DNA from: Candidatus Berkelbacteria bacterium
GTDB taxonomy: Bacteria; Patescibacteriota; UBA1384; XYA2-FULL-43-10; 1-14-0-10-43-13
Length of the DNA stretch: 58,847 nt
Assembly: GCA_026397135.1 (NCBI GenBank)
Contig: JAPLVL010000060.1
Span: forward strand, 8,458 to 67,304
Direction: 5' to 3'
Shown: positions 2,621 to 58,774 of the stretch, piece by piece
Layout of the letters: every line of letters begins with the position of its first letter
Numbering within the stretch: the first letter of the stretch is position 1
The notes under the pieces: model-generated
Told to the model about the DNA's origin: nothing
Databases searched by the model: none
Seen by the model: the letters and a program-made list of their open reading frames with translations, nothing else
Program-made: the position numbers and the translations under genes

Positions 2621-3637
2621 CTATTTCCCTGTCTTGAATTTGTACTTCAATTCAACAATATTACCGCTTTTCTCAAACCCTCCGGCAATTTCATCGGATC
2701 TTTCGAGATAGTAGAAAATGCGTCCGTCAGCGGCATAGAGAAATTCGATCTTCCTCGAACCTTTTGGTAGCCGGATCTGGAAACTTTTGACAATCTCTCT
2801 CCTTGCAACATCGATAATATAACAGTCACCCTCTTTGTTCGAAGCCATAAGCCATTTCTCCCCTGGAGAAAGTTTCAGCACGAAAGGCCCGGGGGTAGGC
2901 ATCAAAATCCATTCATCGGCCGTTTCAGACAAGAAATAAATCCCTTTGGTATTCATCGTCTTGGTATATATTTCTTCGTCTGACTTCGTGGAGAGACCAT
3001 GGCTTCGGTAGTCGTGTAACTCTTCTTCCAGGTCAGATTTAACAATATTCCCCTTCAGATCATATTTCAGAATACCGAGCAAGAATCCGCGTGTAACATC
3101 GAGATGACGAGTCAGGATGATGAGTTCTCTGTTTCTGATTTCAAATGAATGATTTCTGCGGAAACCGGTATCAAATTTCCTCTTAGCTCTGCTCTCCAGA
3201 TCGATCGCTTCTATTCCGTCTTCGTAGAGGACAAACACCTCGGACTCAGTCAGGTGAAAGCTTAGCGGCATCTGTTTGAGAGCCAAAAATTCCCGCGACT
3301 CGCCCGTCTTCTGGTCCAGAATATAAAGTCGGTATTTGTCGCTGTCCTCGGAGAGCAAAACGAAATTATCGGAGAATGGCTGCTGCTCGACTGCAATCAC
3401 ATCGTCGAATCCGCCCGACAGCTTCCACTGCTTTGATTGGACAAGGCTCTGCCAATCGATCCTTTTCTCAAATCGGGGCAAGTCCGCACCTATACAGTGC
3501 GAAATCAGCTTTTCGATCTCCATCTCCGAGATTAGCGCCAGAGATGGGAATTGACGACCGACTGCCATATCAAAATTACGCAGCTCTTTGACGATCTGCC
3601 CCAGGTATTCGGTAAATTTTTGGCATTTAGTTTGCAT
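2621..3637 (-). CDS. NCH-array paralog, class P (N-terminal Cys-helix module + divergent beta-propeller-like repeats)
   Basis: 338-aa ORF. N-terminus MQTKCQKFTEYLGQIVKELRNFD fits the family module. The C-terminal part is beta-strand rich with blade-like segments (LSPGEKWLMASNKEGDCYIIDV); the propeller call is weaker than for other members. Confidence 0.8.
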   Translation of the reverse strand: MQTKCQKFTEYLGQIVKELRNFDMAVGRQFPSLALISEMEIEKLISHCIGADLPRFEKRIDWQSLVQSKQWKLSGGFDDVIAVEQQPFSDNFVLLSEDSDKYRLYILDQKTGESREFLALKQMPLSFHLTESEVFVLYEDGIEAIDLESRAKRKFDTGFRRNHSFEIRNRELIILTRHLDVTRGFLLGILKYDLKGNIVKSDLEEELHDYRSHGLSTKSDEEIYTKTMNTKGIYFLSETADEWILMPTPGPFVLKLSPGEKWLMASNKEGDCYIIDVARREIVKSFQIRLPKGSRKIEFLYAADGRIFYYLERSDEIAGGFEKSGNIVELKYKFKTGK

Positions 3638-3672
3638 ACTTTGTAATGATAAATGGCGACAGAATAATGTTT

Positions 3673-3725
3673 GGATCCTGAATCAAGTTCAGAGCCTGCC
3701 CTCGACCTGATCGAGGGATGACAAC
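3673..3725. repeat. REP-like palindromic element remnant
   Basis: Hairpin ccctcga-cctga-tcgaggg (3699-3717) followed by atgacaa. Minus strand reads gttgtcatccctcgatcaggtcgaggg, the same GTCATCC... style of end as the other small elements here. Confidence 0.4.
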
Positions 3726-3727
3726 TA

Positions 3728-3958
3728 TTATAATTTTGCTCGGTGGGGAAAAATCTGACGCCCAAGCCGATCAATATATGATTTCGATTGATCCTTATAT
3801 AGGATTTGTGCCACGCCCTTATGAAAATAACTTGGTGGGTATGCGTTTTCGGACGACTCCAGCTTCTTCATGTGTCCGGATTTATTGAGCAAGAAATGAT
3901 CAGTATTGATCCCGACAACTGCCACCCCCTCTGAGAACCAGTTGGCATCTTGAAATCG
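3728..3958 (-). pseudogene. WG-repeat coding remnant in frame behind the TAG stop of 3959..5167
   Basis: Same frame as 3959..5167 (3959-3728=231). Hand translation directly after TAG (3961-3959): RFQDANWFSEGVAVVGINTDHFLLNKSGHMKK...YFHKGVAQILYKDQSKSYIDRLGRQIF, i.e. two more WG-type repeats with no further stop for 76 codons. Confidence 0.6.
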
Positions 3959-5167
3959 CTAATATCGCTTCGAAAAACTGCCGAGGTTTTTAATATCATA
4001 CGGATCACCAACTAGTGCAATTCCTTCTGCAAAATGAGAGGACATCCCAAACTTTTTGCCAGGAAAAGCAAATGTGCCATCGGGACGTAAATACTTCCTC
4101 TCGCCTGCGCTCTTTTCAGATTTTATCTGGACATTTGCTAAGCCATCAGAAAAATCCTCTCCCGACTCAAAAGGACCACCGACGATTTCAGCTTTCTGAT
4201 TGATATAATAATGATCCCGGCTGTTACCTCCTGCTAGGGTGGAAATATGATAGATGCCCTCCGGGCTTGGTGCTTTGCTACTGTAGAGAGATTTACCTTC
4301 CACAAAGTGCGGCAGGGGCACTTGTTTTTTCTCCCCACTCTTGCTGACGATATACAAATGGCCAACAGGCGACGAACCGCCATTGCTTGTTGTATCGATC
4401 CCCAGGCAGTAACCATTGTAAAAATTTGTCAGACGAACTAGTGTGTTTTCGTAATGTACTACCCCTCCCTCCTGATTGATCAGACGATATTTGCCATCCT
4501 TGAAATTTTTGACCCAGGCAACCCCTTCGGAGAACAATTCCCCTCTGTCATCGGCAGCACCGATGGTGGTGACCTTGCCCACAGAGTCAATCATTACCAA
4601 GCACTCACCCGACTGATTCTGTCTTTTCAAAATTAGCGGAAAATCCGGCATGCTGGTGGTCACATTGGCAAAATCTAGACCGCTTGGATAGAAATAGTGG
4701 ACATCAGGCTCCTCCATTGCGGGGAAGGCGTTCGTGCCGTCTTTCCGAATAATCTTGCAGGTATAATATTTATCCACCACATCTGTCTGGACCAGCGCCA
4801 AGCCATCTCGAAATTCAGTTACTCGAGAAAATGGTCCGGCTATCAACTCTTCTGTTTTGTTGTTTAGGAGATAAACGTCATAAGTGAGTCCTGCTGGCAC
4901 TCGCCTCATTCGATAACCCCAGACAATCCCGTCCGACTCTGGAACATAGACAAAATCAAGATCAAATTTCTCGGACAAGCGGTTTCTGGCCTGATATTTG
5001 AATCTATTTTCCAAAAAATATGGGATTTCGGTCCAATCGATCAGCTTCTCCTGCAGATCTTTCTGAGCTGCAATCAAATCTCCCACAGCAAAATTATCCG
5101 GCTTGCATAACTTTTTGCCCTGTTCGACCAATTCTTGAATAAATTTTGTTGCTTCAATACATGACAT
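3959..5167 (-). CDS. NCH-array paralog, class W (N-terminal Cys-helix module + WG-containing/KWG-type repeats)
   Basis: 402-aa ORF. N-terminus MSCIEATKFIQELV. Repeats FRDGLALVQ, FSEGVAWVKNFKDGKYRLINQEGG, FSDGLANVQ, FAEGIALVG. Confidence 0.85.
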   Translation of the reverse strand: MSCIEATKFIQELVEQGKKLCKPDNFAVGDLIAAQKDLQEKLIDWTEIPYFLENRFKYQARNRLSEKFDLDFVYVPESDGIVWGYRMRRVPAGLTYDVYLLNNKTEELIAGPFSRVTEFRDGLALVQTDVVDKYYTCKIIRKDGTNAFPAMEEPDVHYFYPSGLDFANVTTSMPDFPLILKRQNQSGECLVMIDSVGKVTTIGAADDRGELFSEGVAWVKNFKDGKYRLINQEGGVVHYENTLVRLTNFYNGYCLGIDTTSNGGSSPVGHLYIVSKSGEKKQVPLPHFVEGKSLYSSKAPSPEGIYHISTLAGGNSRDHYYINQKAEIVGGPFESGEDFSDGLANVQIKSEKSAGERKYLRPDGTFAFPGKKFGMSSHFAEGIALVGDPYDIKNLGSFSKRY

Positions 5168-5267
5168 GAATTAGTTTTTAGTTGGTAGTTTTGTACCGGT
5201 TTCGTATTTAGTGGTTATGTAATTCTTAATTCTTACTTTAGGCTTTATAACTTGCTCACTTGTTCAC

Positions 5268-6728
5268 CTACTCACTTACTTTCCTCATCTCCTCTTCAAC
5301 ATCGACTACATCTGTCGTACCATCACTATTATACACCCGCATCAGAATCAAGCCACCCTTTCTGGTCTGGTCAATCATGGCGTAAACCTGTTCTAATTTG
5401 GCCACCGGATCATCGATCAGCAGAATTCCGCCATCCATCTCGATTCCCAGTTTGAACAGCTCCCCACCATTGATCGCTCTGGCTCGTTGCGACAGCGTTA
5501 GTTTGCTAAACCGCGGGCGCGAGGGTAATTTGCGCAGTACCAAGATTCCCCCCTTCATCCCATAAGACAGTGACTCTTCGGTAAATTGGTCAGGATCTTC
5601 TATTACGGCTAATCCCTTTCGATTGGCAATGAAATGCATCAGCGCATTGTAATTTACAATTCGATGCACTAGCTCGTCACTATGGCAAACATATTCGCCG
5701 CTCTCGTTTTGGTAAAACGCCCCGAAGTGCTTGAATTGTTTTGAGGGGTCAAGATGGCCGCAGAGGAAGGTTGCACCGGAACCGCCCATGATCTGTTCAT
5801 CACGAAGCTGATTGATATAGCAGGTAGCGTACGCGTACTTCATGAATTCTGTGCTGAAATCACCTGAATCACAGCAAAAGGCTGCCTTGCTGAAACTGGC
5901 CATACCGACACCACACCTATCAATCACGAAACTTGCTCCAGCGTCAGCATTCTTGCCGGTATTAACACTGGTTTGGTAAGCTACAAATTTACCACCGGTC
6001 GCAAATTCGCCCAGCCCTTCATCGCAATATCGCACCTCGATCCGACCGGCCTTCTTGTACATCCCTAGCTTGTCACCGGCAGTAATTATTTTTGCCTCCA
6101 CTGCTCCAGTGCTGGCAAAAGCGTAGTCGCCAACACTTCCTATTTCAATTTTGCCCTTTTCCAGAAAAACACCGAAGAAATTCTTGAAATTGATCGGAAT
6201 ATCTCGGCCGATAATTATTTCGTCGCTTTTCTCTAACATTTTTTCCAAAATAACAGAATTGACCAGGTTGAAGAAAAATCCTCTGCCGGCATACAAGCCA
6301 TAACCGGGGGCATAGTGACTGGTAAAAGTCGAAAACTTTTGATGAAGGCTGCTTTGCTCTAGCCGATCGAGGAGATCAATGTATAACTTTTCGACAAATT
6401 TCATCTCTGGCAAAGATTCAGAGAGCTCGGCCCCAAGGAAGTCGAAGAGTCGGCGACCAGACAGAAGATTGGGTGAATCTCTATCCAAGACTCCCATCAT
6501 TTTCTCTTCAAATTTTTGCCACATATTTTCGTCGGCAAGTTTCTCTTCAAATTCGCGATAAGGGTTGCTCAATTCGACCAATTCTAGAATTTCCGCCTTG
6601 ATTTCTCTCAATTCCCTGATTTCTCTGCTCGATGCTGGAAGGTTTTTCGCCAAAATACCATCAAACCGTCTGAAGTAGCCAGAAATCAGAAGTAAATTTT
6701 CGCTAATTGTATGACAATCAAGTTTCAT
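5268..6728 (-). CDS. NCH-array paralog, class G (N-terminal Cys-helix module + GXGXG beta-helix, GltB C-terminal/FwdC-like)
   Basis: 486-aa ORF. N-terminus MKLDCHTISENLLLISGYFRRFD. Gly-rich beta-helix turns GDYAFASTGAVEAKIITAGDKLGMYKKAGRIEV, GMKGGILVL, MDGGILLIDD, KGGLILMRV. Confidence 0.85.
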   Translation of the reverse strand: MKLDCHTISENLLLISGYFRRFDGILAKNLPASSREIRELREIKAEILELVELSNPYREFEEKLADENMWQKFEEKMMGVLDRDSPNLLSGRRLFDFLGAELSESLPEMKFVEKLYIDLLDRLEQSSLHQKFSTFTSHYAPGYGLYAGRGFFFNLVNSVILEKMLEKSDEIIIGRDIPINFKNFFGVFLEKGKIEIGSVGDYAFASTGAVEAKIITAGDKLGMYKKAGRIEVRYCDEGLGEFATGGKFVAYQTSVNTGKNADAGASFVIDRCGVGMASFSKAAFCCDSGDFSTEFMKYAYATCYINQLRDEQIMGGSGATFLCGHLDPSKQFKHFGAFYQNESGEYVCHSDELVHRIVNYNALMHFIANRKGLAVIEDPDQFTEESLSYGMKGGILVLRKLPSRPRFSKLTLSQRARAINGGELFKLGIEMDGGILLIDDPVAKLEQVYAMIDQTRKGGLILMRVYNSDGTTDVVDVEEEMRKVSE

Positions 6729-6894
6729 AAATGCTTTTTCGTTATCCTAATATCGAATCGACCGAAATGACCGAATAATACCTTCGATTCGATTGATGAG
6801 GTATCTTAATTCTTAATCCTTACTGCTTAATTCTTGATGAACTTTATAACCTGCTTACTTGTTTACCTACTCACCTGTTTACTTACTCACTGAT
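6729..6894 (-). repeat. Conserved intergenic module, copy a (full length)
   Basis: Coding-strand order: octamer array, GGTTATAAAGTTCATCAAG, AATTAAG/GATTAAG short repeats, ATACCTCATCAA, stem-loop (plus-strand arms atcgaatcga 6752-6761 and tcgattcgat 6784-6793), ATTAGGATAAC, then ATG 6728. A 57-nt core is identical in copies a, c and e. Confidence 0.85.
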
Positions 6895-6914
6895 TCACTG
6901 ACTCACTGACTTAC
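6851..6914 (-). repeat. Tandem octamer array (8 units; coding-strand unit GTRARYMR)
   Basis: Plus strand in perfect 8-nt register: ctgcttac ttgtttac ctactcac ctgtttac ttactcac tgattcac tgactcac tgacttac. Every unit carries TGA or TAA on the coding strand. The last units encode the ...KSKSVSQ* tail of 6895..7986. Confidence 0.9.
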
Positions 6915-7986
6915 TTTTCCCATACACCAGCACTCTGCCATCCTTCAGTGAAATCACAACTGTATGATCCGGGGTAATTTCGACCGCTCGAATGAAGCCG
7001 GATTCCCGCGCAAGGAGATCACTTGGCAGCGGCAACTTGCGAATTTGTTTTCCCGTTGCCAGCTCGAATACTTTTGCTTCATTGAAGACAGTAGCCGCGA
7101 CCAGATATTTACCTTCGGCATCTGCGGCAATTGATACATAATTGTCGGTCTGATCAAAGGGGATCGGCTCGCTCTCCGATTTGGAGTCTCTCAGATTTTC
7201 CAGCAAATATATTTTGTGATCCCAGCCGATGCAAGCGATGCGATCGTTTGGCAGCGTCACGAACTGAGCAATCTTGAAATTGGGTTCTTGGATAAATTTC
7301 TCACTTTTATAATCCCAAACATAGAGACGAAATAATTTGCTCAACGCATAGACTAGCCGGCCATCTCTGGAGAGTTTAATCTTCTCGATATGGACACTTT
7401 GGTCAGGCAATCGAAATTCTCCAGAGCTCATGAACCCAGATCCAATCTTGGCAATTTTGTTGCCGTAAATTCCAACTGTGTGTTCGTCATCAAGAGTGTC
7501 AAACTCATGAGGTAACTGGCCACCTCGAGTGATACCACTAAATTTCGGATCGTAGAGATCATAATAGATCACCACTCGCTTGCCATTATCAAAATCTGTC
7601 GCAGTCAGGTAGAAAAGCTCGTTTTGCACACTCAATCGGCAAGGCCCGAGATTGTTCTGGGTCTCGTCTCGATCAGTGAAAATACTGGTTGTTCTGGACT
7701 GCGCCGTCTCGAAATCATAAATTTGGAAAGACTTGGAAGCATTGACGATCAACAGCTTTTTGCCGTCTGGAGTTAGTCGAACCGGCCAACTGCCATTTCG
7801 ATAAAAATCGAGCTGATCCTCAGGGATCTCGACCCTGAACTCGGTTAACTTCTCGTAACTTCGCCATCTGATTCTCTCCATTTTTGGCTCCAACAGATGA
7901 TTAATTTCACGAGAGACTTCCAAACCTTTGCCAAAATGGCCGGCTTTTTCAGCTGCTTTCAAATTATTGAAATGAAGCTGAACCAC
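6895..7986 (-). CDS. NCH-array paralog, class P (WD40/PD40-like beta-propeller); true start probably upstream at ATT 8031
   Basis: 363-aa ORF from GTG 7986. Blades LTPDGKKLLIV, LSRDGRLVYAL, ITPDHTVVISLKDGRVLVYG. The family Cys motif (INWIGSCAELTSFLTV) lies in frame upstream of the GTG; see finding. Confidence 0.85.
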   Translation of the reverse strand: MVQLHFNNLKAAEKAGHFGKGLEVSREINHLLEPKMERIRWRSYEKLTEFRVEIPEDQLDFYRNGSWPVRLTPDGKKLLIVNASKSFQIYDFETAQSRTTSIFTDRDETQNNLGPCRLSVQNELFYLTATDFDNGKRVVIYYDLYDPKFSGITRGGQLPHEFDTLDDEHTVGIYGNKIAKIGSGFMSSGEFRLPDQSVHIEKIKLSRDGRLVYALSKLFRLYVWDYKSEKFIQEPNFKIAQFVTLPNDRIACIGWDHKIYLLENLRDSKSESEPIPFDQTDNYVSIAADAEGKYLVAATVFNEAKVFELATGKQIRKLPLPSDLLARESGFIRAVEITPDHTVVISLKDGRVLVYGKSKSVSQ

Positions 7987-8045
7987 AGTCAGGAAACTGG
8001 TTAACTCTGCGCAACTACCAATCCAATTAATCTTGCCCTCCTTAT

Positions 8046-9188: not shown

Positions 9189-9215
9189 CACTGTTCTACT
9201 CTAATATTCAACACT

Positions 9216-9246
9216 ATTTTAACACTCATAATATATCTAACATCAA
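9216..9246 (-). promoter_or_regulatory. Candidate extended -10 promoter for 8046..9188
   Basis: Minus strand TGTTAAAAT (9224-9216) with weak -35 (TTGATG 9246-9241, 19-nt spacer, or GATGTT, 17 nt), 27 nt upstream of ATG 9188. The same TGTTAAAAT occurs at 29604-29596. Confidence 0.3.
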
Positions 9247-9391
9247 ACAAGGCAGAAATTGCCTTACTGATATTTTAGCATTTTTGAGGTTTCTCAAGCA
9301 AATATTTAGCTCGTAATTCCATGTGGTCTCTGCCACAGGGTAATTCATCCAAATATAGTGTTCAAAAATGAAAATAAAATAAGCATAAATA

Positions 9392-16280: not shown

Positions 16281-17436
16281 TTTCGCCCCCTTTCTCGAGA
16301 AAGCTGAATTCGAAGCGAGGAGATAGGGTTATTACTTTGCGCTTGATAACTTTGCCCTCAGGGGAAATATCTTCGATCAGCTTGGTAATCCTGCGACCAT
16401 CTCGGCTCACATCTACATTAGAGAGATGTCCTTTGCCGTAATTCATCGAGACTTTCTGACCGGTTTTCCAATTGTAAATAAGAAGGTGGTGGCTGCGATT
16501 GGTATAATCAGCATTGAGCGGGAAGAGAAGGTTGTCGCCAGGCAGGAAAATAGGAGCGAAATGGAGCGAATTATCAGCCACCGGCAGAAAATCAAAGGTG
16601 AATTTCCGAGCAGTAACAGTATCGACGACTTGGATTTTTCCCTCTGCATTTAGAAAAGCATAATGGCGACCATCATCAGCGATCCCAACCTTGCCAATTA
16701 ACTTGCCAAAAAATTTCTGAGGACGCAATCCTTGCTCTAGGTCATAAATTGCCGAAGTACCCTCTGAGCCGTGATATGGAGCTATCATCTTGTCCGAATT
16801 TTCATTGACCGCCCCCTTTGACATATCGCCGAGCATATGACCAGATTCAAACCATTTATCAGGCTCTGTTTTCCTCATTGCCGAATATGCTTTTGAAAGA
16901 TGACCAGCCTCCCTTTTGTGTCCACAGAGCAGAAAACTTTTGGAGAGAATAACATCCTGGAATTCGCTGCAGCTATGGTCCCAAATAAGTTGATCGTTTC
17001 GAAAGCACTGCAAATTTCCCTTGCCGTACTGTCCTTCGCCGACCAGATAGACACTGCCGTCCCGATCGATTACAAAATCGCTCATCAAGATGCTCCTGGC
17101 CGTCGTCTTCCAGCTAACCAGAGGAGACATCGACTGATTCTCTGGATCAATCGCAAATATACCTGCCATATTTATGAGGCAAATGCGGCCATCCCCCAAT
17201 AATTTGGTCTTGTCGAAATAATGAGTCGTCTCGACCTCCATCTCCGCAACCGGACTTAACTCGGAGTAGTCGCTCATGAGCGGCAGGCAGATTTCTCGCA
17301 AAAGCGGATTGACTTTCCTCGTAGTCTCGAAGGCTGCGCCATATTTTCGCACATCAAAATCTCGATCAAAATCAGATTTTAATTTTGCAATCTTTCGCAA
17401 TCCCGCTGTCATTTCTTGGCAATATTTGTCAATCAT
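16267..17436 (-). CDS. NCH-array paralog, class P (N-terminal Cys-helix module + WD40/PD40-like beta-propeller)
   Basis: Start moved to ATG 17436 (GGAGG then 5 nt), giving MIDKYCQEMTAGLRKIAKLKSDFDRDFD. Blades IADDGRHYAFLNAEGKIQVVD, VSRDGRRITKL. 14-nt overlap with the next gene. Confidence 0.85.
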   Translation of the reverse strand: MIDKYCQEMTAGLRKIAKLKSDFDRDFDVRKYGAAFETTRKVNPLLREICLPLMSDYSELSPVAEMEVETTHYFDKTKLLGDGRICLINMAGIFAIDPENQSMSPLVSWKTTARSILMSDFVIDRDGSVYLVGEGQYGKGNLQCFRNDQLIWDHSCSEFQDVILSKSFLLCGHKREAGHLSKAYSAMRKTEPDKWFESGHMLGDMSKGAVNENSDKMIAPYHGSEGTSAIYDLEQGLRPQKFFGKLIGKVGIADDGRHYAFLNAEGKIQVVDTVTARKFTFDFLPVADNSLHFAPIFLPGDNLLFPLNADYTNRSHHLLIYNWKTGQKVSMNYGKGHLSNVDVSRDGRRITKLIEDISPEGKVIKRKVITLSPRFEFSFLEKGGENEMS

Positions 17437-18463
17437 TTTTGCCTCCAAATCTGTCTGGCTTCCAGGTCTCAAATATGTGCTCGATCGGGTCGTTGTTTTG
17501 ATTCAATATATGATAGGAGAAGGAAATTTGACGATCAGCGATATCAATCGCCTCGAGCTTTCCCGTGTAGTGGTTGCTCCAAACGAAACGATCCTTCTCG
17601 AAGTCAAAAACCTTGAGCGAAAATCCATTTCTAGTTTTGCCCGAAAGTAAAACTCTATCCTTGTCCAGTGGTCTCACATCGACTTGGCCGATTGAAACGC
17701 CGTTACCATAGAAATTGCCAATGCCATTGAAATTTGCTTCTCTCTTCGTCGCGGTTTCAAGGTCAGTCAGACAAATTGTAGTCTTGGCTCCTCTCCGCCT
17801 CAAGCAGGCAGCTAAATCTCCATCCGGACCCATGAAAACCTTGTCGATCGTTGCCCCCTGAACTGGTTCATTTTCGATGACGAGATCAATTGCCTTGATC
17901 TCGTCCACCACATCGATCGCCACAAAATCCCTCTTCGAGCTGAAGGCTGCCTCTCGCAAGACGAGATTACTGTCGCGACTAAATAAATATCCACCGTTAG
18001 CAATATCATAGAGATTAATCTCCGTTTTCTTCGGTTGGCGAAATTCGCAGACAATGTAGCTCTTCGTAAGATTAATATCGTAAGCCGCTCCAACCATGTA
18101 TACCTGCCAAAGTTTCTCGCCGTTTTCGAAGCAAACAAGTGTCGGCCTATTGTCTGCAAGATCATTCCCGCACATATAGACCTTGCCGTCACTATTGACT
18201 TCTGTGACTGTTATACTACGAAAAATTTTGTATATTTCCACATTAGGAACGAGAGTTTCTAACTGACCCAAGGAATATTCAGAATCATTCTCCACTTTAT
18301 CACCGTGCCCAATGCGGAAATAATCTTTCCCGGAATTTAGGACCACAGATCCGTCAGCCAAAATTTTCAGATTTTTGAAGGCAAGATGCCGATTCAAGAT
18401 TTTCTTCTCTTCGCAATGCCAATGAGCAAAATCAGGGGGGAATTTCTCTATAATTTCTCTCAT
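17429..18463 (-). CDS. NCH-array paralog, class P (beta-propeller); true start probably upstream (CTG 18595 or ATA 18592)
   Basis: 344-aa ORF from ATG 18463. Blades MGPDGDLAACL, NGFSLKVFDFEKDRFV. The in-frame upstream 44 codons encode IVDCANLSREIISLRKSKFQFDSFFD, i.e. the family module; see finding. Confidence 0.85.
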   Translation of the reverse strand: MREIIEKFPPDFAHWHCEEKKILNRHLAFKNLKILADGSVVLNSGKDYFRIGHGDKVENDSEYSLGQLETLVPNVEIYKIFRSITVTEVNSDGKVYMCGNDLADNRPTLVCFENGEKLWQVYMVGAAYDINLTKSYIVCEFRQPKKTEINLYDIANGGYLFSRDSNLVLREAAFSSKRDFVAIDVVDEIKAIDLVIENEPVQGATIDKVFMGPDGDLAACLRRRGAKTTICLTDLETATKREANFNGIGNFYGNGVSIGQVDVRPLDKDRVLLSGKTRNGFSLKVFDFEKDRFVWSNHYTGKLEAIDIADRQISFSYHILNQNNDPIEHIFETWKPDRFGGKND

Positions 18464-18688
18464 TTTCGTACTGATTTTGTCCGCTAGATCGAGAGCATCT
18501 CTACATTTCTCGGCATCGAAAAAAGAGTCAAATTGGAATTTGCTTTTTCGCAGTGAAATGATTTCTCGGGATAAATTTGCACAATCAACTATCAGAAAAA
18601 CCCCTCTCTTCTAGTGGTAATTTCATTTTACCAAAAAATCCACACTAATACCTGTGGATTATATTTATTGCCAGAAATTGTCTCTTTG

Positions 18689-32313: not shown

Positions 32314-33379
32314 TTTTGCGATAAATCTTAATTCTCCCCCCAGAGTCGCCAGCGATAATCGATTCTGATCTCTCGTCCCAGGCAATATTGGTAATTGCCA
32401 CGCCGTCATTCCGGAATGTTTTCTTCGCCTTGCGACTTTCCAGATCGTAAATATTGATCTCACCATTTCGGTCGCCAGTACAGATGAACTTTGATTTTTC
32501 GTCGATACAGAGAGCTATCACCGGATTCTTGAGCAGAATTATTTCGGGCTCTCTGTGTAAGTCCATTGTATCATAGAGACGAATTCCTTTCTCCCCCGCC
32601 ACCACCATATTTTGTGTATTTGTTGTCAGAGCAGTGATCTTGTCTTCGTATTTATACGAAACTTCTGTTACGATCGGCCTATTAACAAACATCCCCATTT
32701 CCCCAATATCATGGATCTTGATTCTGTTCTGACTTGCAACAACAAACTTATCATCTGGTAAGAAGCTGATCCAGTGGATTGGTATCCCGATGTTACCAAC
32801 CAGCCGACATGGTGCACCATTTGAATAGAAATATCCAAGCTCCCCCTTGTCTGTCCCAGCCAGGAAAGTTTGGCGCTTCGGGTCTTCTGGCATTGCCAGC
32901 GCCACCTTGCCATAAGGATTTTTGAACCTCAAAGTATCTCTGAAACCATTGTTGACTCGATCAGAAAGATTAATTGTCCCCTCGCAGGTTGCGAAAAGCA
33001 TTTGTCTGGAAGTAGAATCTATGGCGATTTGATTGAGCGGAAACTCAACCGAAAAATCACTGATTATCTCTCCGCCAACATCACCGAGGCAGACATGGCT
33101 TCTATCGCAAAAGACAAAGAAATTGTTACCATCTTCAAAATCAGGTAGCGTGATTGAAACAATCTCTCCCATATTTGGAGCCAAAATTTCAGCTGTCTTC
33201 GCGTATCGAGCATAGGGATTGAGACTGTCCATTATCGGACTAATGATCAACTCAATATCAGCCACCACCTTTTTCTTGGCGGAAATATTTGAAATCAAGG
33301 AACCGTCTTGATCGAATTGCGATATCAATGGCACAGCTTGTCCCAAGGCCTCAGTTAATTTTTGGCAATCATATTTCAT
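32300..33379 (-). CDS. NCH-array paralog, class P (N-terminal Cys-helix module + WD40/PD40-like beta-propeller)
   Basis: 359-aa ORF. MKYDCQKLTEALGQAVPLISQFD. Blades TGDRNGEINIYDL, AGDSGGRIKIY. Confidence 0.85.
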   Translation of the reverse strand: MKYDCQKLTEALGQAVPLISQFDQDGSLISNISAKKKVVADIELIISPIMDSLNPYARYAKTAEILAPNMGEIVSITLPDFEDGNNFFVFCDRSHVCLGDVGGEIISDFSVEFPLNQIAIDSTSRQMLFATCEGTINLSDRVNNGFRDTLRFKNPYGKVALAMPEDPKRQTFLAGTDKGELGYFYSNGAPCRLVGNIGIPIHWISFLPDDKFVVASQNRIKIHDIGEMGMFVNRPIVTEVSYKYEDKITALTTNTQNMVVAGEKGIRLYDTMDLHREPEIILLKNPVIALCIDEKSKFICTGDRNGEINIYDLESRKAKKTFRNDGVAITNIAWDERSESIIAGDSGGRIKIYRKNDSE

Positions 33380-39134: not shown

Positions 39135-40260
39135 CTAGTCACCAGCCTTTTTCTTCGTTAATATCCGTACCTCTCCCTTCCGACTCAGGGTGACAATGTC
39201 GCCATTGTCCTTCAGAACAATCTGCTGGATCCTACCAGAAGCTGCCGGAATAGTATTGTGCATTCTCTTTGCCAAAGCTTGGTCCTTGTGACTGATGTCG
39301 GTGCAGGAGACTACCCCATCCACCTCTTCGGTCAGGCAGAAACGACCGTCATCGACAAGTGTCGTCGCGTCGGAATAATAGACAGTATCAAGCAGCTTCT
39401 TCTGACCTGTCTCAAATGAATATTCCATGAGATTACCGTCCTGGTAAATCAAACGATTACTCTCTCTATCGACAGAGATACTGGTCGCATCCGCCGAGAG
39501 TGATTTGACTTTCCCGCTTTCGATATCAATCAGGGAGAGCGGTCCCTCACCCAAAACGCGAAAGCTCAATTTTCCGAGGGGAGATGAAGACAAAAGGAAG
39601 TCTGATGATTTGCGAAGCAGAGTATCTCAAGATTGCCCTCGGAGAAAAACAATAGAGGCGATTTTCACACAAGAAAAAACTTTTCTTGCGACTCTCGAAA
39701 TAGAGCCTGGCTAAAATAGTAAAGAAACTGCCGCCACCTTCAATCCATTTTTCCGTCTGATTAGTCTCCATGTTATGTATGTAGTAAGCTCCTCGTGCTC
39801 CATTTCCATAGTAAAAGACCATTTCCTTGCCATCGGGCGAGAAAACTAATTCGGGACGAATCCCTGCATCAAAACCAAGATCTAAATTTCTAAAATCAAT
39901 CCGATACTCTTCCCTTGGCGCCGTCAGCTCTAATCCATTTTCCTTTATGCTACTAATATCGATGATTTTATCACTCATAATATTGACAAATTTACCGCTC
40001 TTGGGCACAATCGCCCCCGGATATTGGGTGAAACCGACGCTTGGCTGCTGGATATTTGAATAAAACTTCACACTTTTTTCGAGACTGTGATATTGCGACC
40101 AATCAAACTTAAACGATAGCCCATATTCAATCAGCGAACAAATTTCAGCATGCAGTTTCAGAAGCTGAGGCAAATTTTGTTTCTTGATTTCACCAAAATC
40201 GCTCATCTTCCTCTGAATTTCGAGCAAATTCTCTGTTAAATTTTGGCAACTTTTCTTCAT
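39135..40260 (-). pseudogene. NCH-array paralog, class P, split by a +1/-1 frameshift (ORFs 39547..40260 and 39135..39593)
   Basis: The upstream ORF has MKKSCQNLTENLLEIQRKMSDFGE and FSPDGKEMVFYYG. The downstream ORF continues with propeller-like sequence (GPLSLIDIESGKVKSL...). The two frames overlap at 39547-39640. Joined length of about 375 aa equals that of intact class P members. Confidence 0.7.
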
Positions 40261-40387: not shown

Positions 40388-41458
40388 TTACGAACGGAAC
40401 CCTGAAATCTTCATCTTTGCCTTTGGCTTCTGCAATTTGTGCCAAAACCTCTTCTCCTTTGGCTGATTCTCCGGCAAATCCTCACCATTATAGAAGGTCC
40501 ATTTGGAATCATCAGAGAGTACTATCACTCCGCCAGGGCAAGGCATAACATCGCTCATTTCCTTCAAACCTTCCTTTTTGAAAAGCACTTTTTCCTGATT
40601 TAGCACTACTCGCCCATTAGCCTCATCAAATGCTATCAAACCGCCATCGGGGTGAAGCGCAACCTCACACATTCCCTCCCCCTCAAAAACGATCTCCGAT
40701 ATTCCCTTCGAGTAGAATGTCTTCATAATTCTGAAATTTCGCCACTCTTTGGGTTCTTCTTTCTGCATATGGAAAAACTCAAAATAAATTTCGCCATCTC
40801 TTCCTACCTCCCAACCAGAAATCCATGTCGAGTTGGTTGGCTCAGGGAAAAATGGGTTTTGATTGGGAATTTCCAGAATTTTCTCCTCATCGTTAAGCCA
40901 AAACTCACGACTTCGCTGGATCACAAACCCCTTCGGATGCGCTTTCCAGATGAAATGAACCTGATGATTTGGCTCATGATAAACTTCTTGGTCGTTTATG
41001 AAAAGTTTATCACCAACATGGACAATATATCCCCGAGGATGAGGGCGGACATCGAATACTTTCTCTTCTACCATTCCGTACTTGTCTGGTATGTCGCTCG
41101 GCTTCATCGCCGAGAAATCGGCAATCACTTTGCCATTGAGCAATATTTGCCAAACTTTATCATCTTCGAACATTATCCCCTCCGGGTGAGGGTACCAACA
41201 ATGTTTATATTCATCATAACTACAGCTACTTTGGTCGTCGCACCGAAAGACGGTTTCGCCATTTCGATATTTATTCCAGAAAATATAAGGATTGTGTTCG
41301 TAACATTCCTCCCGCATTTTGGCGATTTCCCTCTCGACACCTACCTTTATTCTCAGGGCAGATGCGATGCTCTCAGGTTTGACAAATATATCGAAAATTT
41401 TCATATTCGTCCTGATGCCTGAGATATCTTTTGATAATTTTTCGCAAAAATTTTCCAT
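40388..41458 (-). CDS. NCH-array paralog, class H (N-terminal Cys-helix module + HP[DK]G..LN[GD] repeats, uncharacterised)
   Basis: 356-aa ORF. MENFCEKLSKDISGIRTNMKIFD. Repeats YPHPEGIMF..LLNGK, RPHPRGYIVHVGDKLFINDQ, KAHPKGFVIQRSREFWLNDE, LHPDGGLIAFDEANGRVVLNQE, PCPGGVIVLSDDSKWTFYNG. Confidence 0.85.
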   Translation of the reverse strand: MENFCEKLSKDISGIRTNMKIFDIFVKPESIASALRIKVGVEREIAKMREECYEHNPYIFWNKYRNGETVFRCDDQSSCSYDEYKHCWYPHPEGIMFEDDKVWQILLNGKVIADFSAMKPSDIPDKYGMVEEKVFDVRPHPRGYIVHVGDKLFINDQEVYHEPNHQVHFIWKAHPKGFVIQRSREFWLNDEEKILEIPNQNPFFPEPTNSTWISGWEVGRDGEIYFEFFHMQKEEPKEWRNFRIMKTFYSKGISEIVFEGEGMCEVALHPDGGLIAFDEANGRVVLNQEKVLFKKEGLKEMSDVMPCPGGVIVLSDDSKWTFYNGEDLPENQPKEKRFWHKLQKPKAKMKISGFRS

Positions 41459-51720: not shown

Positions 51721-51734
51721 TGTTTTAATGTTTG

Positions 51735-51952: not shown

Positions 51953-53290
51953 TTAATTCTTGCTTTTAGCTTTTTCAGACTTATTTAGACTATTTTCGAC
52001 CTTTTCAAACACTTCTCTCCCGCTCTTGTCGATATAAAATATCCGCGATTTGCTTCCGACTTTGGCGAGACCGTCCTCGAAATCGCAAGCCATTCCAAAC
52101 CTTTTTTTGAAAATATCTTTGCCCTCTTTGTCGATGAAATAATATTCACTCCCTCTGTCAGAAACGATAGCCAAGCCTTCGTGAAAATCACTCGCCGTAA
52201 ACCATTCCCCCGAGAACGCCTCCCCTCCATCGGTTCGTATGAATCTAGCTTTGCGCGGTTTCCCACCATCGATTCTGGGAACTGATCTGTCCGAGACAGC
52301 GGCCAGCCCTTCACTAAAATCGCTTGCTTTGCTGTAATTACCGGCAATCGATTTGCCTGATTGATCGATATAATATGAATAGCCAACACCTTCATCACCC
52401 AGAGATACAACTCGAGCCAAACCGTTGTGAAACGGGTGCGGTGCATGATATTTCGGCAAGGTGAAGAGGTATTTACCAGTGCAGTCGTAGAGCGAGGCCG
52501 CCTCAGAGCTGGTGGCGTGCCGGAGCCAGACAAGCCCCTCCGTGACTTCGCCGAAAAACATCATGCAGTCCGCCGCTTCAGACTGCCCCACGATATTCTC
52601 GTTTTCATCGAAAAACTTAGTCGTGCTACCATCTTTGACCCAGGCAATTTCATCACTAAAATCTTTGGCAATACGATAAAACCCAGTCTCTCCCTGCTTG
52701 CTTGCAAAAAGCCGCCGCAACTTGCCATTTTCAGCTTTCAGAAAGAATGTTTCCCTTCTAGAGCCGGCCATCGTCCGAGAAATCATAATAATTCCGTTTC
52801 TTTTGAAACCGTCGAGCTCAGTTTGATCGGCATGAAATTCAATCATGACCTGGCCTGTCTTGGCACTGACCGCGCGCAAAAGCATTTGGTTTAGACCATC
52901 GTATCCCCGCCTTGAATACACCCAGGCGATTCCATTGTGGAAATTGGTCCAGATCAGGTCAGAATAGTATTCACCGATCTTCTCGCCCTCTGTGTTTACG
53001 ACAAAATTAATTTCATCAACATTATTTTTGGAATTCTGGGTTGCCCAGGCGACACCGTCAGAAAATGGCGAGACGAAATCAGCGTCAACTTTCCTGGCGA
53101 CCCTCTCCCGCAAGAAAATCTGATTGGGATCAATTTTTTCCAAAGTTTCAAGGCAAAAATCTTGCAATTCCTTCTGTTTTTCCAGAGCCTTGAGGACATT
53201 TCCCGCGTCAAACAGTTTGTCAAAATCACGAAAAACCGCCAGCTTGCTAGCCAGTTTGTCTGTAATCTCAAGGCAATTTGGTTCAATCAT
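51953..53290 (-). CDS. NCH-array paralog, class W (N-terminal Cys-helix module + WG-containing repeats)
   Basis: 445-aa ORF. MIEPNCLEITDKLASKLAVFRDFD. Repeats FSDGVAWAT, FHNGIAWVY, FSDEIAWVK, FHNGLARVV, FSEGLAAVS, FHEGLAIVS, FEDGLAKVG. Confidence 0.85.
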   Translation of the reverse strand: MIEPNCLEITDKLASKLAVFRDFDKLFDAGNVLKALEKQKELQDFCLETLEKIDPNQIFLRERVARKVDADFVSPFSDGVAWATQNSKNNVDEINFVVNTEGEKIGEYYSDLIWTNFHNGIAWVYSRRGYDGLNQMLLRAVSAKTGQVMIEFHADQTELDGFKRNGIIMISRTMAGSRRETFFLKAENGKLRRLFASKQGETGFYRIAKDFSDEIAWVKDGSTTKFFDENENIVGQSEAADCMMFFGEVTEGLVWLRHATSSEAASLYDCTGKYLFTLPKYHAPHPFHNGLARVVSLGDEGVGYSYYIDQSGKSIAGNYSKASDFSEGLAAVSDRSVPRIDGGKPRKARFIRTDGGEAFSGEWFTASDFHEGLAIVSDRGSEYYFIDKEGKDIFKKRFGMACDFEDGLAKVGSKSRIFYIDKSGREVFEKVENSLNKSEKAKSKN

Positions 53291-55993: not shown

Positions 55994-56117
55994 TCCCTAT
56001 CCCTCACTTATTTTTGTTTTAATCGATCAGTTTATTCGGAGCCCAAACTTATGTTTGTTTATTCATTCATTATCCCAAAAAATGGCAACAATTTTTGCTT
56101 CTACTGATATTTTAGCG

Positions 56118-56157
56118 CAAAAACAAAAACAACAGAAGACCAGTTGTCCGCTGTTTG
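56118..56157 (-). terminator. Weak candidate intrinsic terminator after 56184..57449
   Basis: Minus strand CAAACAG-cggacaactggtctt-CTGTTG (bulged 6-bp stem with an inner GAC/GTC pair) followed by TTTTTGTTTTTG. Confidence 0.3.
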
Positions 56158-56183
56158 GGGGAAGCAGAACGATAATATTCAAT

Positions 56184-57449
56184 CTATACGAAAGGCTCAA
56201 CCTCGAAGGGATTGGTTTTGCTTGTTCTCGAAATTCGCTCAATTTTGTGCCCAAAGACTTGACGGCCCTGATGATCGAGAAAGGATTTTTCACCGCTATA
56301 ATCGGTCGCCTCCGATACACCAGATCTGAATTCTTCAATATATTGATATTTTTTGACTTTAGTTATATTACCCTGAGTATCCAAAAGCGAATATTGATCT
56401 TTGGCTGTTTCGACGACAGCATAACCTTCGGAAAAATCCAACGCTGAAACAAATGGCCCAAATTTTTCAACACCGTTTGCGTCTATGAAATATTGCTTTG
56501 ATTCCCGACCCACAATCGCGAAACCATCTGAAAATGAACGAGCTCCTTTGTACGGTCCAAGCTTGAAATGGCCTTCCTTGTCGAGATAATAGAAATGGAA
56601 ATCATTATATTTTTGGACCAGTAATAGACCATCTTTGTAGCCATTTGCCAAAACTGTACCTTCGAATGTAAATTTGGTTTTACCTTGGGTATCAACCACA
56701 ATATATTTTTCTGGTCCAGTGTAAGACACGGCCAAACCCTCCGAAAACATCTTGGGAGATTTGACATCCCTTATGTAGGTATTGTTACCGTTTTCATCCA
56801 CCAGATACCACCAACCGGTCGCCTCGCCCCAGCCAAAGCCTTCCGAGAAATCAACAATCCTGCCATAGGTTGAATCATTTAGAGGTTCTCCTGTACTTTT
56901 GATAAACCGATAATGCTCTCCACTCTCATCAAACGCTCCGAGTATATCGCCTTGTTGTTGATCTGGATTGGAGGAATATGTCGCGAAAGTTCCCCTTTCT
57001 TCACCCTGAGATGAAAAAAGATGAGTTTCTCGGTTGTTGTCATCATCATAAACCGAAATAATTGCCACTCCCGATGTTGTTATCCCAAGATACCCAGTAT
57101 CCAAAATTTCCTTTAATAGCTTTCCATCTCTATCGACCAAAACAACTTTGACATCAGCTTCGTTGCCCCGTATGTTTCCCTGAACAGCTTCGGCCCAAGC
57201 CGTCCCTGCCTCGGAAAATTCACTAATCCAGTACAAATTGTTTTTGCGACATATATAATCGCGGTGACGAATCGTGCTATCGTAGTCAGTCTTCTCTTTC
57301 AAAATTTTGATTTCCACATCGAAGACAACTCGATCAATTGAAGCTGCCAATTCCTTCGCTTCCTTGATATGGCGAGGCAAGAGAGAATCAAATTCATTTA
57401 GCTTGGTCGCTAAATATTTCAACATAAATGAAATTTGACCGCATTTCAT
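56184..57449 (-). CDS. NCH-array paralog, class W (N-terminal Cys-helix module + WG-containing repeats)
   Basis: 421-aa ORF. MKCGQISFMLKYLATKLNEFD. Repeats FSEAGTAWAE, FSEGFGWGE, FSEGLAVSY, YKDGLLLVQ, FSDGFAIVG, FSEGYAVVE. ATGA overlap at 57446-57449. Confidence 0.85.
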   Translation of the reverse strand: MKCGQISFMLKYLATKLNEFDSLLPRHIKEAKELAASIDRVVFDVEIKILKEKTDYDSTIRHRDYICRKNNLYWISEFSEAGTAWAEAVQGNIRGNEADVKVVLVDRDGKLLKEILDTGYLGITTSGVAIISVYDDDNNRETHLFSSQGEERGTFATYSSNPDQQQGDILGAFDESGEHYRFIKSTGEPLNDSTYGRIVDFSEGFGWGEATGWWYLVDENGNNTYIRDVKSPKMFSEGLAVSYTGPEKYIVVDTQGKTKFTFEGTVLANGYKDGLLLVQKYNDFHFYYLDKEGHFKLGPYKGARSFSDGFAIVGRESKQYFIDANGVEKFGPFVSALDFSEGYAVVETAKDQYSLLDTQGNITKVKKYQYIEEFRSGVSEATDYSGEKSFLDHQGRQVFGHKIERISRTSKTNPFEVEPFV

Positions 57450-58774
57450 ATTTCTGCTCCCTTTTCAAAAACTGCTTTCCCTTTCTGATCAATATAATGC
57501 TTGAGACCATTCAACTCAGTGACCAGGGCGACACCCTCCTTGAATTCGGCAGCCTCCTTGAAACTTCGGTCAAAGAGAATATGCCCTGTCCAATCAATGA
57601 ATCGAGAGAACTTATTGTATTTCACAAGCGCAATTCCATTATGATAATCGCCGGCATCAATCGCGCTAATCAAGCTCAAAACTTCTTTGCCTGCCGAATT
57701 TATAAAATAATATCGTCCCCAATTGTGAATCAGGGCCACGCCTTCATGAAAATCATGGGCCATATCGAAGGGACCTAATTTTTTGTGGCCGAATTTATCG
57801 AAGAAATATGTCTCGTAATTTTCTCCCCTGAAGACAGTTGCAAAAAACAATCCCTCATCAGAAACACTTTTTCGGGGGGACAAATTCTCTTGGGCAAAAT
57901 TTTTGATTCGAGCCGTTCTTTTGACCTTTTTGCCCGAAAAATCATAAATTGATAGCTCGTTACGAGTGACATTCATAATCATGGCCAGTTTGCTGTTAAA
58001 CCCAAGAGCTGAATATTCAATCCTATCAATCTTGCCAATATCAAAAGTGCTTACCACCTTGCCATATTCATCATCCAGGAAAATCAAGCCGCCATTTCGG
58101 ACTTCCCGCAGAGTGTATCCGTGAGAGAAGGGTGTTGCATTTGAATATCCGGTATGCATAGGAACACCGTCAGCATCCAGATAATGATAGCCATATTGTT
58201 CGACACCTTGTTCTCCCAGGAGACGGCCAAAGGCCAGATATGTCACCCTCTCGCAAGCCTCACTCTGTTCTACATGGGAAAAATCGCTTTTCAGCACCGG
58301 TTCCCCCATCATATCCACCAGAGTATAGCTCCAACTCTGAGCATAACTGCCATCAGAATCTTCGTATCCGCCGGTTGATTTGGCAATCCAAGTCTTACCA
58401 TTTATTATCGGCTTACTTCCCCGAAATTCAGGTGGAAATTGATGGATAATTCTCCTCGATTCAGTATCGACAATTGAATACACTGGTTCTGAATATTTGC
58501 CTTTTGCTTGTCCGAAAGCATAGCGCTCTTCGTAGATTTCACCAACATAATCAAGATTTAATTCGGCCGCCAAATTTTGCCTCCGGAGCAGTTGCAAGTG
58601 ATCTGTAATCTCGCACGCCTTTTCCATCTCCAAAACAATCAGCCGTTTCGTTCTCTTCGCCTGCGCTATTTCTTGGCTTTTGCAGTATGTCGAAAACACT
58701 CCATCGTAAAAATGGATTTCATTTACAAAACCGGTGAGCACCGGGCATTTTGCCTTTTCTCCCTCACTTGTCAT
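57446..58774 (-). CDS. NCH-array paralog, class W (divergent N-terminal module + WG-containing repeats); first gene of the array in this window
   Basis: 442-aa ORF. MTSEGEKAKCPVLTGFVNEI. Repeats FSHGYTLRE, FHEGVALIH, YHNGIALVK, FKEGVALVT. Confidence 0.85.
   Translation of the reverse strand: MTSEGEKAKCPVLTGFVNEIHFYDGVFSTYCKSQEIAQAKRTKRLIVLEMEKACEITDHLQLLRRQNLAAELNLDYVGEIYEERYAFGQAKGKYSEPVYSIVDTESRRIIHQFPPEFRGSKPIINGKTWIAKSTGGYEDSDGSYAQSWSYTLVDMMGEPVLKSDFSHVEQSEACERVTYLAFGRLLGEQGVEQYGYHYLDADGVPMHTGYSNATPFSHGYTLREVRNGGLIFLDDEYGKVVSTFDIGKIDRIEYSALGFNSKLAMIMNVTRNELSIYDFSGKKVKRTARIKNFAQENLSPRKSVSDEGLFFATVFRGENYETYFFDKFGHKKLGPFDMAHDFHEGVALIHNWGRYYFINSAGKEVLSLISAIDAGDYHNGIALVKYNKFSRFIDWTGHILFDRSFKEAAEFKEGVALVTELNGLKHYIDQKGKAVFEKGAEI

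Follow-up and report, generated by a model that had tools for sequence, protein, structure and literature searches.

The stretch of DNA analysed here, called the window below, comprises 58,847 nucleotides of contig JAPLVL010000060.1 (assembly GCA_026397135.1) from a Candidatus Berkelbacteria bacterium, and it carries an array of 42 minus-strand open reading frames (ORFs) of 237-507 amino acids (aa) that all point in one direction between positions 2621 and 58774, with neighbours that overlap or nearly abut. Forty-one of these genes encode the same N-terminal module of about 50 residues, referred to here as the Cys-handle, in front of interchangeable repeat scaffolds, and next to the array lies the 5′ part of a gene for a protein with a HExxH motif. 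An earlier note made from the letters alone had described 42 co-directional paralogs with an N-terminal module common to 41 of them, which our recount confirms. The GC content of the window is about 43% and its GC skew is negative throughout. A search of the window for tRNA genes found none, nor did any integrase or structural gene of a phage come to notice there. As had also been read by eye, the array proteins lack a signal peptide or transmembrane segment, with the highest 19-residue Kyte-Doolittle mean reaching 1.51. About 10 kb of the 69,184-bp source contig extend beyond position 58847 and may hold further array genes. The coordinates of all features are collected in Table 1.

The Cys-handle

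The handle is composed of an invariant N-terminal Cys, an amphipathic helix and, after a loop, a second helix, and 39 called ORFs begin with it in the form C-x-x-[ILM]-[TS]-x-x-[IL]...F-D. A six-frame scan with a hidden Markov model (HMM) of the handle added two copies, which immediately precede the called start codons of g6895 and g17429 and share their reading frames, and g49447_50223 is the only array member without one. The Cys is present in 41 of 41 handles of the window and, when the eight other loci described below are included, in 91 of 91 handles from nine loci. Positions +3, +7, +10 and +17 are hydrophobic in 85-100% of the window handles and positions +14 and +21 in about 60%, a spacing that is heptad-like. 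By contrast, the acidic residue at +18 (the Asp of 'FD') occurs in 66% of the handles in the window but in 28% of those elsewhere. In 32 of the 41 window handles the Cys follows the nearest Met by 2-6 residues, and only one to eight, mostly polar residues precede it, with no hydrophobic stretch. For this reason, and for want of a lipobox context or a hydrophobic core, a lipoprotein or signal peptide was rejected as the identity of the handle.

The possibility had been raised that the N-terminal similarity is no better than that between generic amphipathic helices. This was examined with an HMM built from the N-termini of the 13 WG-class members alone, against which 18 non-WG members outscored all 2100 shuffled decoys; HMMs from the GXGXG class alone and from the 'other' members alone likewise ranked unseen classes above decoys. 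The similarity of the handles therefore exceeds generic helix likeness, and the N-terminal module is real and common to the scaffold classes, at a mean protein identity of 23% among the window handles. In the AlphaFold2 model of the WG member g51953 (predicted local distance difference test score, pLDDT, 79.5), helices at residues 6-28, 32-53 and 58-67 are followed by an all-beta domain. The handle corresponds to the first two of these helices (pLDDT 73-85), while the third, which links handle and scaffold, is specific to the WG class.

That the handle belongs to no named domain, as had been suspected, was borne out. A profile of 39 handle sequences found no credible match in Pfam, and in the PDB it matched only designed pentatricopeptide repeat arrays, with scores summed over repeats and no single significant stretch; full-length members gave no N-terminal match in NCBIfam or PADLOC, and a word-indexed search of 5.8 billion proteins with the handle returned zero matches. 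Such searches are unproductive because the handle is short and diverges fast: the window HMM scores the handles of one related locus (L002, see below) at 20-32 bits and those of the remaining loci below 13 bits. No F-box, BTB, SOCS-box or U-box was among the Pfam matches of the 39 handles at E values up to 10, and these identities were rejected, as was a homotypic domain common to handle proteins and their candidate partners, since the handle HMM misses both the HExxH-vWA and the AAA proteins. The only named family to touch a handle is VMAP-M5, a helical domain from the middle of vWA-MoxR-associated proteins, which matched handle residues 6-51 in one of the 39 members (34627-35817) at E 0.011-0.056; with 13.8 bits, where the cut-off is 27, this match is sub-threshold and probably due to chance.

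Scaffold classes

The C-terminal parts of the array proteins had been sorted into four unrelated scaffolds, namely 19 propellers, 13 WG-repeat proteins, seven GXGXG beta-helices and three HP[DK]G-repeat proteins. BLAST clustering recovers the WG and GXGXG groups with 13 and seven members. Twelve WG members match Pfam WG_beta_rep (PF14903; best E 3.1e-21), and a profile search with this class returns hundreds of ordinary WG proteins. Two of the seven GXGXG members reach Pfam GXGXG (PF01493; best E 3.6e-7), the literal GxGxG string being nearly absent from the class; the same architecture is found in L002 at 8374-9741, where it scores 29.6 bits against a Pfam cut-off of 32.5. Support, weak or indirect in all but one case, exists for about 14 of the 19 claimed propellers and none for the other five. 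Only g32300 passes the WD40 cut-off and ten more have sub-threshold Pfam propeller matches, while a local iterative HMM joins 11 of the 19 with no leakage into other classes and weak Pfam propeller matches add three. The HP[DKE]G trio is held together by its motif and, for g40388 and g48417, by N-terminal similarity (E 3e-6), with no Pfam or NCBIfam family behind the motif. What does not hold is the mutual unrelatedness of the four scaffolds. A Foldseek search with the beta domain of the g51953 model retrieves beta-propellers such as BamB (probability 1.0, TM-score 0.35-0.5), so that two of the classes are propeller-like and the earlier description was overstated. Across the array, the scaffolds have diverged to 11-30% identity.

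The HExxH-vWA protein

The ORF at the left end of the window matches a 1022-aa protein of another locus (L001) with 40% identity over 437 aa (E 2e-93). As the database copy of the window protein (P0122, 773 aa) ends at the residue encoded by window position 1-3, the left end of the window coincides with the contig end, and the vWA part as well as the ATPase gene expected beyond it were not captured. Full-length relatives consist of an N-terminal HExxH domain, a small beta domain, a charged acidic linker and a C-terminal vWA domain ('LLVDNSGSM ... QISDG'). Three motifs are near-invariant when 24 cluster representatives are compared, namely HExxH, N-x-x-x-D-x-x-V-N further downstream and the MIDAS set DxSxS...T...D (D802, S804, S806, T910, D946). 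Pfam VWA matches four of the 24 (best E 4.9e-5), and weak PDB matches are to vWA and integrin I domains. The HExxH domain has no Pfam or PDB match, the best PDB entry being proabylysin at E 0.44 over the motif only; it may be related to the metallopeptidase-like domain DUF2201_N. The family is rare, with 35 clusters, one of them the window's own protein, in an exhaustive HMMER search of 1.84 billion representative proteins. The window copy also contains a very long, low-complexity D/E-rich tract (DDDDDEDEDDDDEEDDDEDEDED...; 220-700, minus strand), just before the helical region and vWA domain of its relatives. The tract calls to mind the acidic linkers that precede the MIDAS domains of Midasin and BchD.

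Conserved gene neighbourhood in other genomes

Related loci were retrieved along two routes: L001 by a WG-class match only, and L002, L003, L004, L008/9, L011, L012/13, L015 and L016 by homology to the HExxH ORF only. Amid the hundreds of WG proteins on the first route, two (P0017 and P0046) have a handle-like N-terminus. The P0017 locus (L001, GCA_964992075.1) is a co-directional array of at least nine genes, and the 1022-aa protein with its HEFAH motif lies inside this array. L002 comes from a metagenome-assembled genome (MAG) titled 'uncultured Candidatus Saccharibacteria' by its depositor and L003 from 'bacterium ELA025'; L004-L007 are contigs that carry P0121, and the others are metagenome contigs. 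The handles of these loci start with M-x-K-x-C-P-Q-L-R in L001 (nine copies seen), MNCQEIT in L002 (nine), M.N.NCPQLK in L003 (13), MTKCEE(L/M)K in L004 (three), MDCGEIT in L009 (ten), MNCPQLK in L011 (one), MINHCKIW in L013 (one) and MPQLCPELT in L015 (four).

Handle genes, the HExxH-vWA protein and a MoxR-class ATPase are thus syntenic in other genomes. Cys-handle genes adjoin the HExxH gene in all eight of the other loci with enough flanking sequence, which supports the ORF at the left end of the window as the candidate partner, a role already proposed for it. In seven of nine loci (L002, L003, L004, L009, L013, L015, L016) the HExxH gene is further adjoined by a gene for a protein of 950-1120 aa with one AAA_5 (MoxR-class) domain, which scores 32-32.7 bits in L002 and L003 against a Pfam cut-off of 22. 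The motifs GxGKT, IIDEAN and WTGNTG are kept in all seven, with Walker A, Walker B and sensor intact and a P-loop of the form G(T/S)GKTALA, and the ATPase has a partial match to GvpN. This survey of relatives had been suggested by the earlier note, and the common partner that the note had left general can now be proposed in more specific terms as the HExxH-acidic linker-vWA(MIDAS) protein together with the AAA_5 ATPase.

The description of the array as one handle on many binders likewise extends beyond the window. The handle recurs in nine other loci, where it precedes canonical WD40 (L015, E 2e-58), WG repeats (L001, L002, L009, L013), GXGXG (L002) and several domains that match nothing. Among the members of one genome the handles differ far less than the scaffolds do (L001, L002 and L015 are examples), and the type of handle (C-x-E-I-T or C-P-Q/E-L) tracks the similarity of the partner proteins, which share 35-51% identity across loci. 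In L001, L012/13 and L015 the system lies beside housekeeping genes, among them those for CTP synthase, ribosomal protein L9 and, probably, Cys-tRNA synthetase.

Three observations concern single loci. In L004 (175-1615 and 8104-9108), a handle of the form MTKCEE(L/M)KT.LE.IETLKKEFD stands on a fifth type of scaffold, in which a unit of about 33 residues ('KILDP.YDLKLG.E.W.GME..L..YR..G.W..F..QA') is repeated in tandem; the repeat is unmatched in Pfam and probably helical. In L015 a ClpP-like ORF (904-1467, …NLNTRGGGTKAGFGIYDLIS…, recognised by eye) lies directly upstream of the handle-WD40 array, in this locus only. L003, L014 and L017 are identical 21,275-bp loci that are stored as a MAG contig, a JGI metagenome contig and an IMG/VR 'UViG' of 57.6 kb. 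Either the density of ORFans has misled the viral call, or the system may sometimes reside on a mobile element; both are possible readings.

A candidate three-part system and its alternatives

On balance, and with a confidence only somewhat above even, we propose that the array is the variable arm, much enlarged, of a three-part system that has not been described before and is centred on a MoxR-vWA pair, with the handle as its docking or recognition element. Its parts would be the HExxH-beta domain-acidic linker-vWA(MIDAS) protein, of which the window holds the first 776 residues; an ATPase of about 1000 aa with one MoxR-class AAA_5 domain, encoded outside the window; and one to dozens of soluble proteins in which a Cys-initiated two-helix hairpin of about 50 residues precedes an interchangeable repeat scaffold. 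The handle would be the common element by which the HExxH-vWA co-chaperone engages each binder, and the AAA+ ring would then remodel, load or release that binder using ATP, as in other MoxR-vWA pairs. As to the contact itself, only one residue of the handle, the Cys at its N-terminus, is invariant, and a Zn-type HExxH motif is conserved in the partner, for which reason we favour a contact of the Cys thiolate with the HExxH metal site, as a tether akin to a cysteine switch or as a processing site, over binding of the MIDAS ion; this remains speculative. The binders could form a diversified intracellular recognition repertoire that acts in biological conflict, either in defence or in interaction with a host cell, a role that is guessed from their extreme diversification, from the binder-type scaffolds and from parallels to MoxR-vWA conflict systems.

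Several points weigh against this reading. We infer the docking of the handle from sequence and synteny, and the synteny of co-inherited genes can mean shared regulation instead of binding. The vWA and AAA parts lie outside the window, and the full system of this bacterium is extrapolated from its relatives, one of which (L001) shows no AAA_5 gene within the 21 kb seen. The AlphaFold2 model of the HExxH domain, made from a two-sequence alignment, has a pLDDT of 40, which makes the peptidase fold only putative. A contact between the MIDAS ion and a handle carboxylate is unlikely, since the Asp of 'FD' is not conserved outside the window, and docking through 'FD' was rejected as a general feature. 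Finally, PADLOC, run on the HExxH protein, the AAA+ ATPases and four array members, matched no defence model and returned nothing beyond a weak TRIP13-type ATPase match.

The handle could instead be a cleavable N-terminal leader or targeting signal, which the HExxH protein cuts at or before the Cys while the MoxR-vWA pair aids export or display, and the binders would then act outside the cell, for example in the attachment of an epibiont. The strictly N-terminal position of the handle, with the Cys so close to the initial Met in most members, would suit such a signal, as would an apparently catalytic, conserved HExxH motif that is always close by; one relative is labelled as belonging to the Saccharibacteria, an epibiotic group, and beta-propellers and WG repeats often act as surface binders. 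However, the handle has neither a hydrophobic segment nor a lipobox context, what is predicted for it is not a short peptide but a hairpin that folds over about 50 residues, and no transporter or secretion genes are seen in any of the 20-kb neighbourhoods. We consider such a leader unlikely, although it deserves some weight. It is likewise improbable that the handle serves in coiled-coil self-association or as an intramolecular cap, with the MoxR-vWA pair as a dedicated folding or assembly chaperone that does not specifically recognise it. This would agree with the heptad-like hydrophobic spacing, with the helix that joins handle and scaffold in the WG class and with the general role of MoxR-vWA pairs as maturation chaperones, but it leaves unexplained why the Cys at the extreme N-terminus is invariant in all nine loci and why differing scaffolds keep one module while they themselves diverge so far.

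Two further explanations remain to be weighed. The array could be cargo of a virus or mobile element instead of a chromosomal system, and serve, for example, to take over a host or to counter defences. The listing of the L003 contig as a viral genome in IMG/VR and the lack of housekeeping genes on the window contig point that way, but the housekeeping genes beside the system in L001, L012/13 and L015, the lack of homologues in 50,697 phage and 72,556 plasmid records and the lack of tRNA, integrase or phage structural genes noted for the window speak against it, and we regard such cargo as very improbable. Hardly any credence is left for the idea that the N-termini are alike through common descent or through homogenisation of 5′ ends at the DNA level, as in cassette-based or phase-variable tandem arrays, with the HExxH linkage being incidental. 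Shared intergenic cassettes, similarities of about 25 nt at some start codons and the members that are frameshifted or lack a start codon would fit it, yet the low identity among the window handles speaks against homogenisation of the DNA, the module with its invariant Cys is kept in genomes where the partners share only 35-51% identity, and the synteny is seen in eight of eight loci.

Relation to known systems

In its working principle, the proposed three-part system resembles Midasin/Rea1, which acts on Rsa4 and Ytm1 in the maturation of eukaryotic pre-60S ribosomes. There, the clients are WD40 propeller proteins, recognised through a small, dedicated N-terminal domain, and what acts on them is a dynein-related ATPase of the AAA_5 type together with a D/E-rich linker and a MIDAS/vWA domain. 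The likeness is one of analogy, as the handle has no sequence similarity to that domain. Midasin is a single giant polypeptide with six AAA modules, two clients rather than dozens and no HExxH domain, and its clients place a conserved Glu of a ubiquitin-like N-terminal domain on the MIDAS ion. A parallel is also seen in the bacterial pairs CbbQ-CbbO, NorQ-NorD, RavA-ViaA and BchI-BchD and in GvpN, where a MoxR-class ATPase and a vWA/MIDAS adaptor are adjacent and serve a specific client; ahead of the vWA domain of BchD, too, there is an acidic linker. Unlike those pairs, which serve one metabolic client complex each, the system described here would serve a large tagged family of binding scaffolds, and a HExxH domain is added to its vWA protein.

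The likeness to eukaryotic adaptors drawn in the earlier note, that is, to F-box, BTB or SOCS-box proteins fused to WD40, Kelch or LRR domains, holds as an analogy of logic, with one docking module, many recognition scaffolds and large paralog expansions; symbionts have adaptor families of this kind as well. Beyond that the two differ, since the handle, a helical hairpin that starts with a Cys, matches none of these boxes in sequence and the partner would be a MoxR-vWA-HExxH pair instead of a cullin ligase. Nearer conceptual relatives are the clients of MoxR-vWA pairs and the ternary conflict systems.

MoxR-class ATPases pair with vWA co-factors that capture a client, which is then remodelled by ATP hydrolysis (PMC7159879). 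The MoxR-vWA-centric ternary conflict systems include subsystems with VMAP, iSTAND, FtsH or beta-propellers (Kaur, Burroughs, Iyer & Aravind, eLife 2020, PMC7159879); the multicellularity statistics of that study did not cover the candidate phyla radiation (CPR). Like these, the loci described here combine a core of MoxR-class AAA+ and vWA proteins with a further, fast-diversifying protein, with beta-propellers among the variable parts, and in rare cases a vWA protein of those systems also bears a fused peptidase domain (PMC7159879). They differ in a variable component that consists of a constant N-terminal handle and a variable C-terminus, up to 42-fold; in a vWA protein that has an N-terminal HExxH domain for which Pfam holds no model, ends with its vWA domain and bears no fused propeller; in an ATPase of about 1000 aa that has a normal GxGKT P-loop instead of GXXXTAKS; and in the lack of any membrane segment. 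Assignment to the beta-propeller ternary systems failed on these grounds: the vWA protein has no propeller, the N-termini are constant, there is no transmembrane segment and the P-loop is ordinary. Apart from the single sub-threshold VMAP-M5 match, no VMAP-C/VMAP-M, iSTAND or FtsH components occur in the neighbourhoods seen, and our literature search found no paper that describes a handle-HExxH-vWA-AAA_5 system. The MoxR-vWA core is of a known kind, and the tagged multi-scaffold family of putative clients and the two domains are apparently undescribed.

Apparently damaged members and intergenic elements

About five of the 42 genes show signs of decay or assembly error: two are split by frameshifts, two have handles without a start codon and one has no handle. 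The last of these, g49447 (49447-50223), sits behind a stop-rich gap of 234 bp and may be a 5′-truncated copy.

Contrary to the earlier description, many of the gaps between the genes are not empty; the AT-rich island that had been pointed out is there. Many gaps share a modular cassette which, on the coding strand, runs from tandem 8-nt units through GCAGGTTATAAAGTTCATCAAG, an AATTAAG-rich block and GGTATTATTCGGTCATTTCGGTCGATTCGATATTAGG to the ATG. The 8-nt units, (A/G)TCAGT(G/A)A, GTAAGTAA and ACAGGTGA, place stop codons in all three frames, and the GGTATTATTCGGTCATTTCGGTCGATTCGATATTAGG segment just ahead of the ATG occurs in 5-7 copies. Together with the similarities of about 25 nt around some start codons, the cassettes make up the repeat families D5 and D9-D13. 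Rfam contains no RNA family that matches the window, cassettes included, and sigma-70 promoters in the cassettes are not above shuffled expectation in number. The cassettes may mark sub-operon boundaries or be regulatory elements.

Short hairpin-forming repeats ('TTGTCATTTCGACCCC...GGTTGGAGAAATCT' and 'GTCATCCCAGTCTTCGATATTACT..GACCCTGAGCATTGTCGAAAGGG') occur in several gaps, and the repeat family D16 has 85% identity between 40288-40360 and 51782-51854; the hairpins look like a small dispersed repeat of the repetitive extragenic palindrome or miniature inverted-repeat transposable element type. In the AT-rich island (9192-10199), where GC content measured over 2 kb falls to about 0.38, there are two copies of a 38-nt palindrome, TTCTACATAATATCGTCGATCGACGATATTATGTAGAA, one at 9395-9432 and the other at 10068-10105, and a minus-strand ORF of about 110 aa (MDKKEIKSKVKDVLVEILDCF...) without a Pfam match lies between or beside the two copies. 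This may be a small element that has inserted here, or else a regulator.

Table 1. Features of the window and their coordinates
Feature	Position	Strand	Remarks
Whole array	2621..58774	-	42 genes, 41 with N-terminal Cys-handle
Handle-coding segments (high-coordinate gene ends), examples	3500-3637, 6573-6728, 53156-53284, 58622-58756	-	
5′ part (776 codons) of HExxH-acidic linker-(vWA) protein	1..2329	-	HEFAH, YYNILEDVIVN, D/E-rich tract; vWA not reached
Representative WG member (445 aa)	51953..53290	-	BLAST cluster, Pfam WG_beta_rep, AlphaFold2, Foldseek
Other WG members	14919-16280, 24157-25425, 35980-37497, 37594-39117, 41645-42898, 42954-44207, 45656-46936, 53287-54792, 54752-55993, 56184-57449, 57446-58774	-	BLAST cluster of 13
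WG member g3959_5167 with frameshifted continuation	3638..5167	-	Gap 3638-3958 still encodes WG repeats ('RFQDANWFSEGVAVVG...')
Representative GXGXG-like beta-helix member	5268..6728	-	BLAST cluster of 7
Other GXGXG-like members	13517-14953, 18817-20175, 21206-22606, 26758-28203, 46956-48230, 50458-51777	-	BLAST cluster
Best-supported WD40-type propeller, g32300	32300..33379	-	Pfam WD40 (29.2 bits; cut-off 27); many propeller models also match
Other propeller-class members	2621-3637, 6895-7986, 8046-9191, 10200-11198, 11214-12359, 12356-13366, 20192-21052, 22827-23969, 25502-26689, 28332-29552, 29964-31193, 31159-32466, 44383-45633	-	
Claimed propellers without fold support	16267-17472, 17429-18463, 33488-34630, 34627-35817, 39547-40260	-	
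Propeller-type gene split by frameshift	39135..40260	-	39547-40260, handle and N-terminal part; 39135-39593, C-terminal blades
HP[DKE]G-repeat members	40388..41458, 48417-49445, 49447-50223	-	Motif positions
g17429 with upstream handle 'VDCANLSREIISLRKSKFQFD'	17429..18586	-	In frame before called ATG; no canonical start codon ahead
g6895 with degenerate handle 'GSCAELTSFLTVVQLHF' ('GSCAELTSFL...')	6895..8016	-	In frame before called GTG; no ATG/GTG/TTG ahead
Intergenic cassette, example	6729..6894	-	Tandem stop-rich octamers, GCAGGTTATAAAGTTCATCAAG, AATTAAG-rich block, ...GGTATTATTCGGTCATTTCGGTCGATTCGATATTAGG... before ATG
Similar cassette copies	Upstream of g12356, g20192, g22827, g26758, g29964, g34627		
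Cassette sites	5243-5284, 6833-6927, 18720-18799, 21105-21230, 22757-22859, 24035-24160, 25432-25534, 26696-26790, 28279-28352, 51855-51915		
Hairpin repeats	3638-3958 (near 3700-3750), 40261-40387, 44208-44382, 48231-48416, 51778-51952		

Significance

Two candidates for new domain families emerge, the handle and the HExxH domain, since neither has a match in the libraries searched. MoxR-vWA pairs are widespread and the way in which they recognise their clients is poorly understood. With putative clients that carry a short tag with a single invariant Cys in dozens of versions, client recognition becomes directly testable. A more far-reaching claim, which we put forward tentatively and think more doubtful than the three-part system itself, is that these loci represent an unrecognised class of prokaryotic recognition machine, in which a MoxR-type ATPase and a HExxH-vWA protein would service a plug-in library of dozens of propeller and beta-helix receptors via the Cys-handle, as a repertoire that resembles innate immunity or targets a host. 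If true, this would be a bacterial counterpart of the logic of Midasin and its MIDAS-interacting clients or of cullins and F-box proteins, and a 56-kb array would take up a very large share of the genome in ultra-small, uncultivated cells. If the relatives truly are Patescibacteria, a large share of a minimal genome would be spent on a diversified repertoire of binders, with consequences for our picture of how these cells perceive hosts and phages or deal with them.

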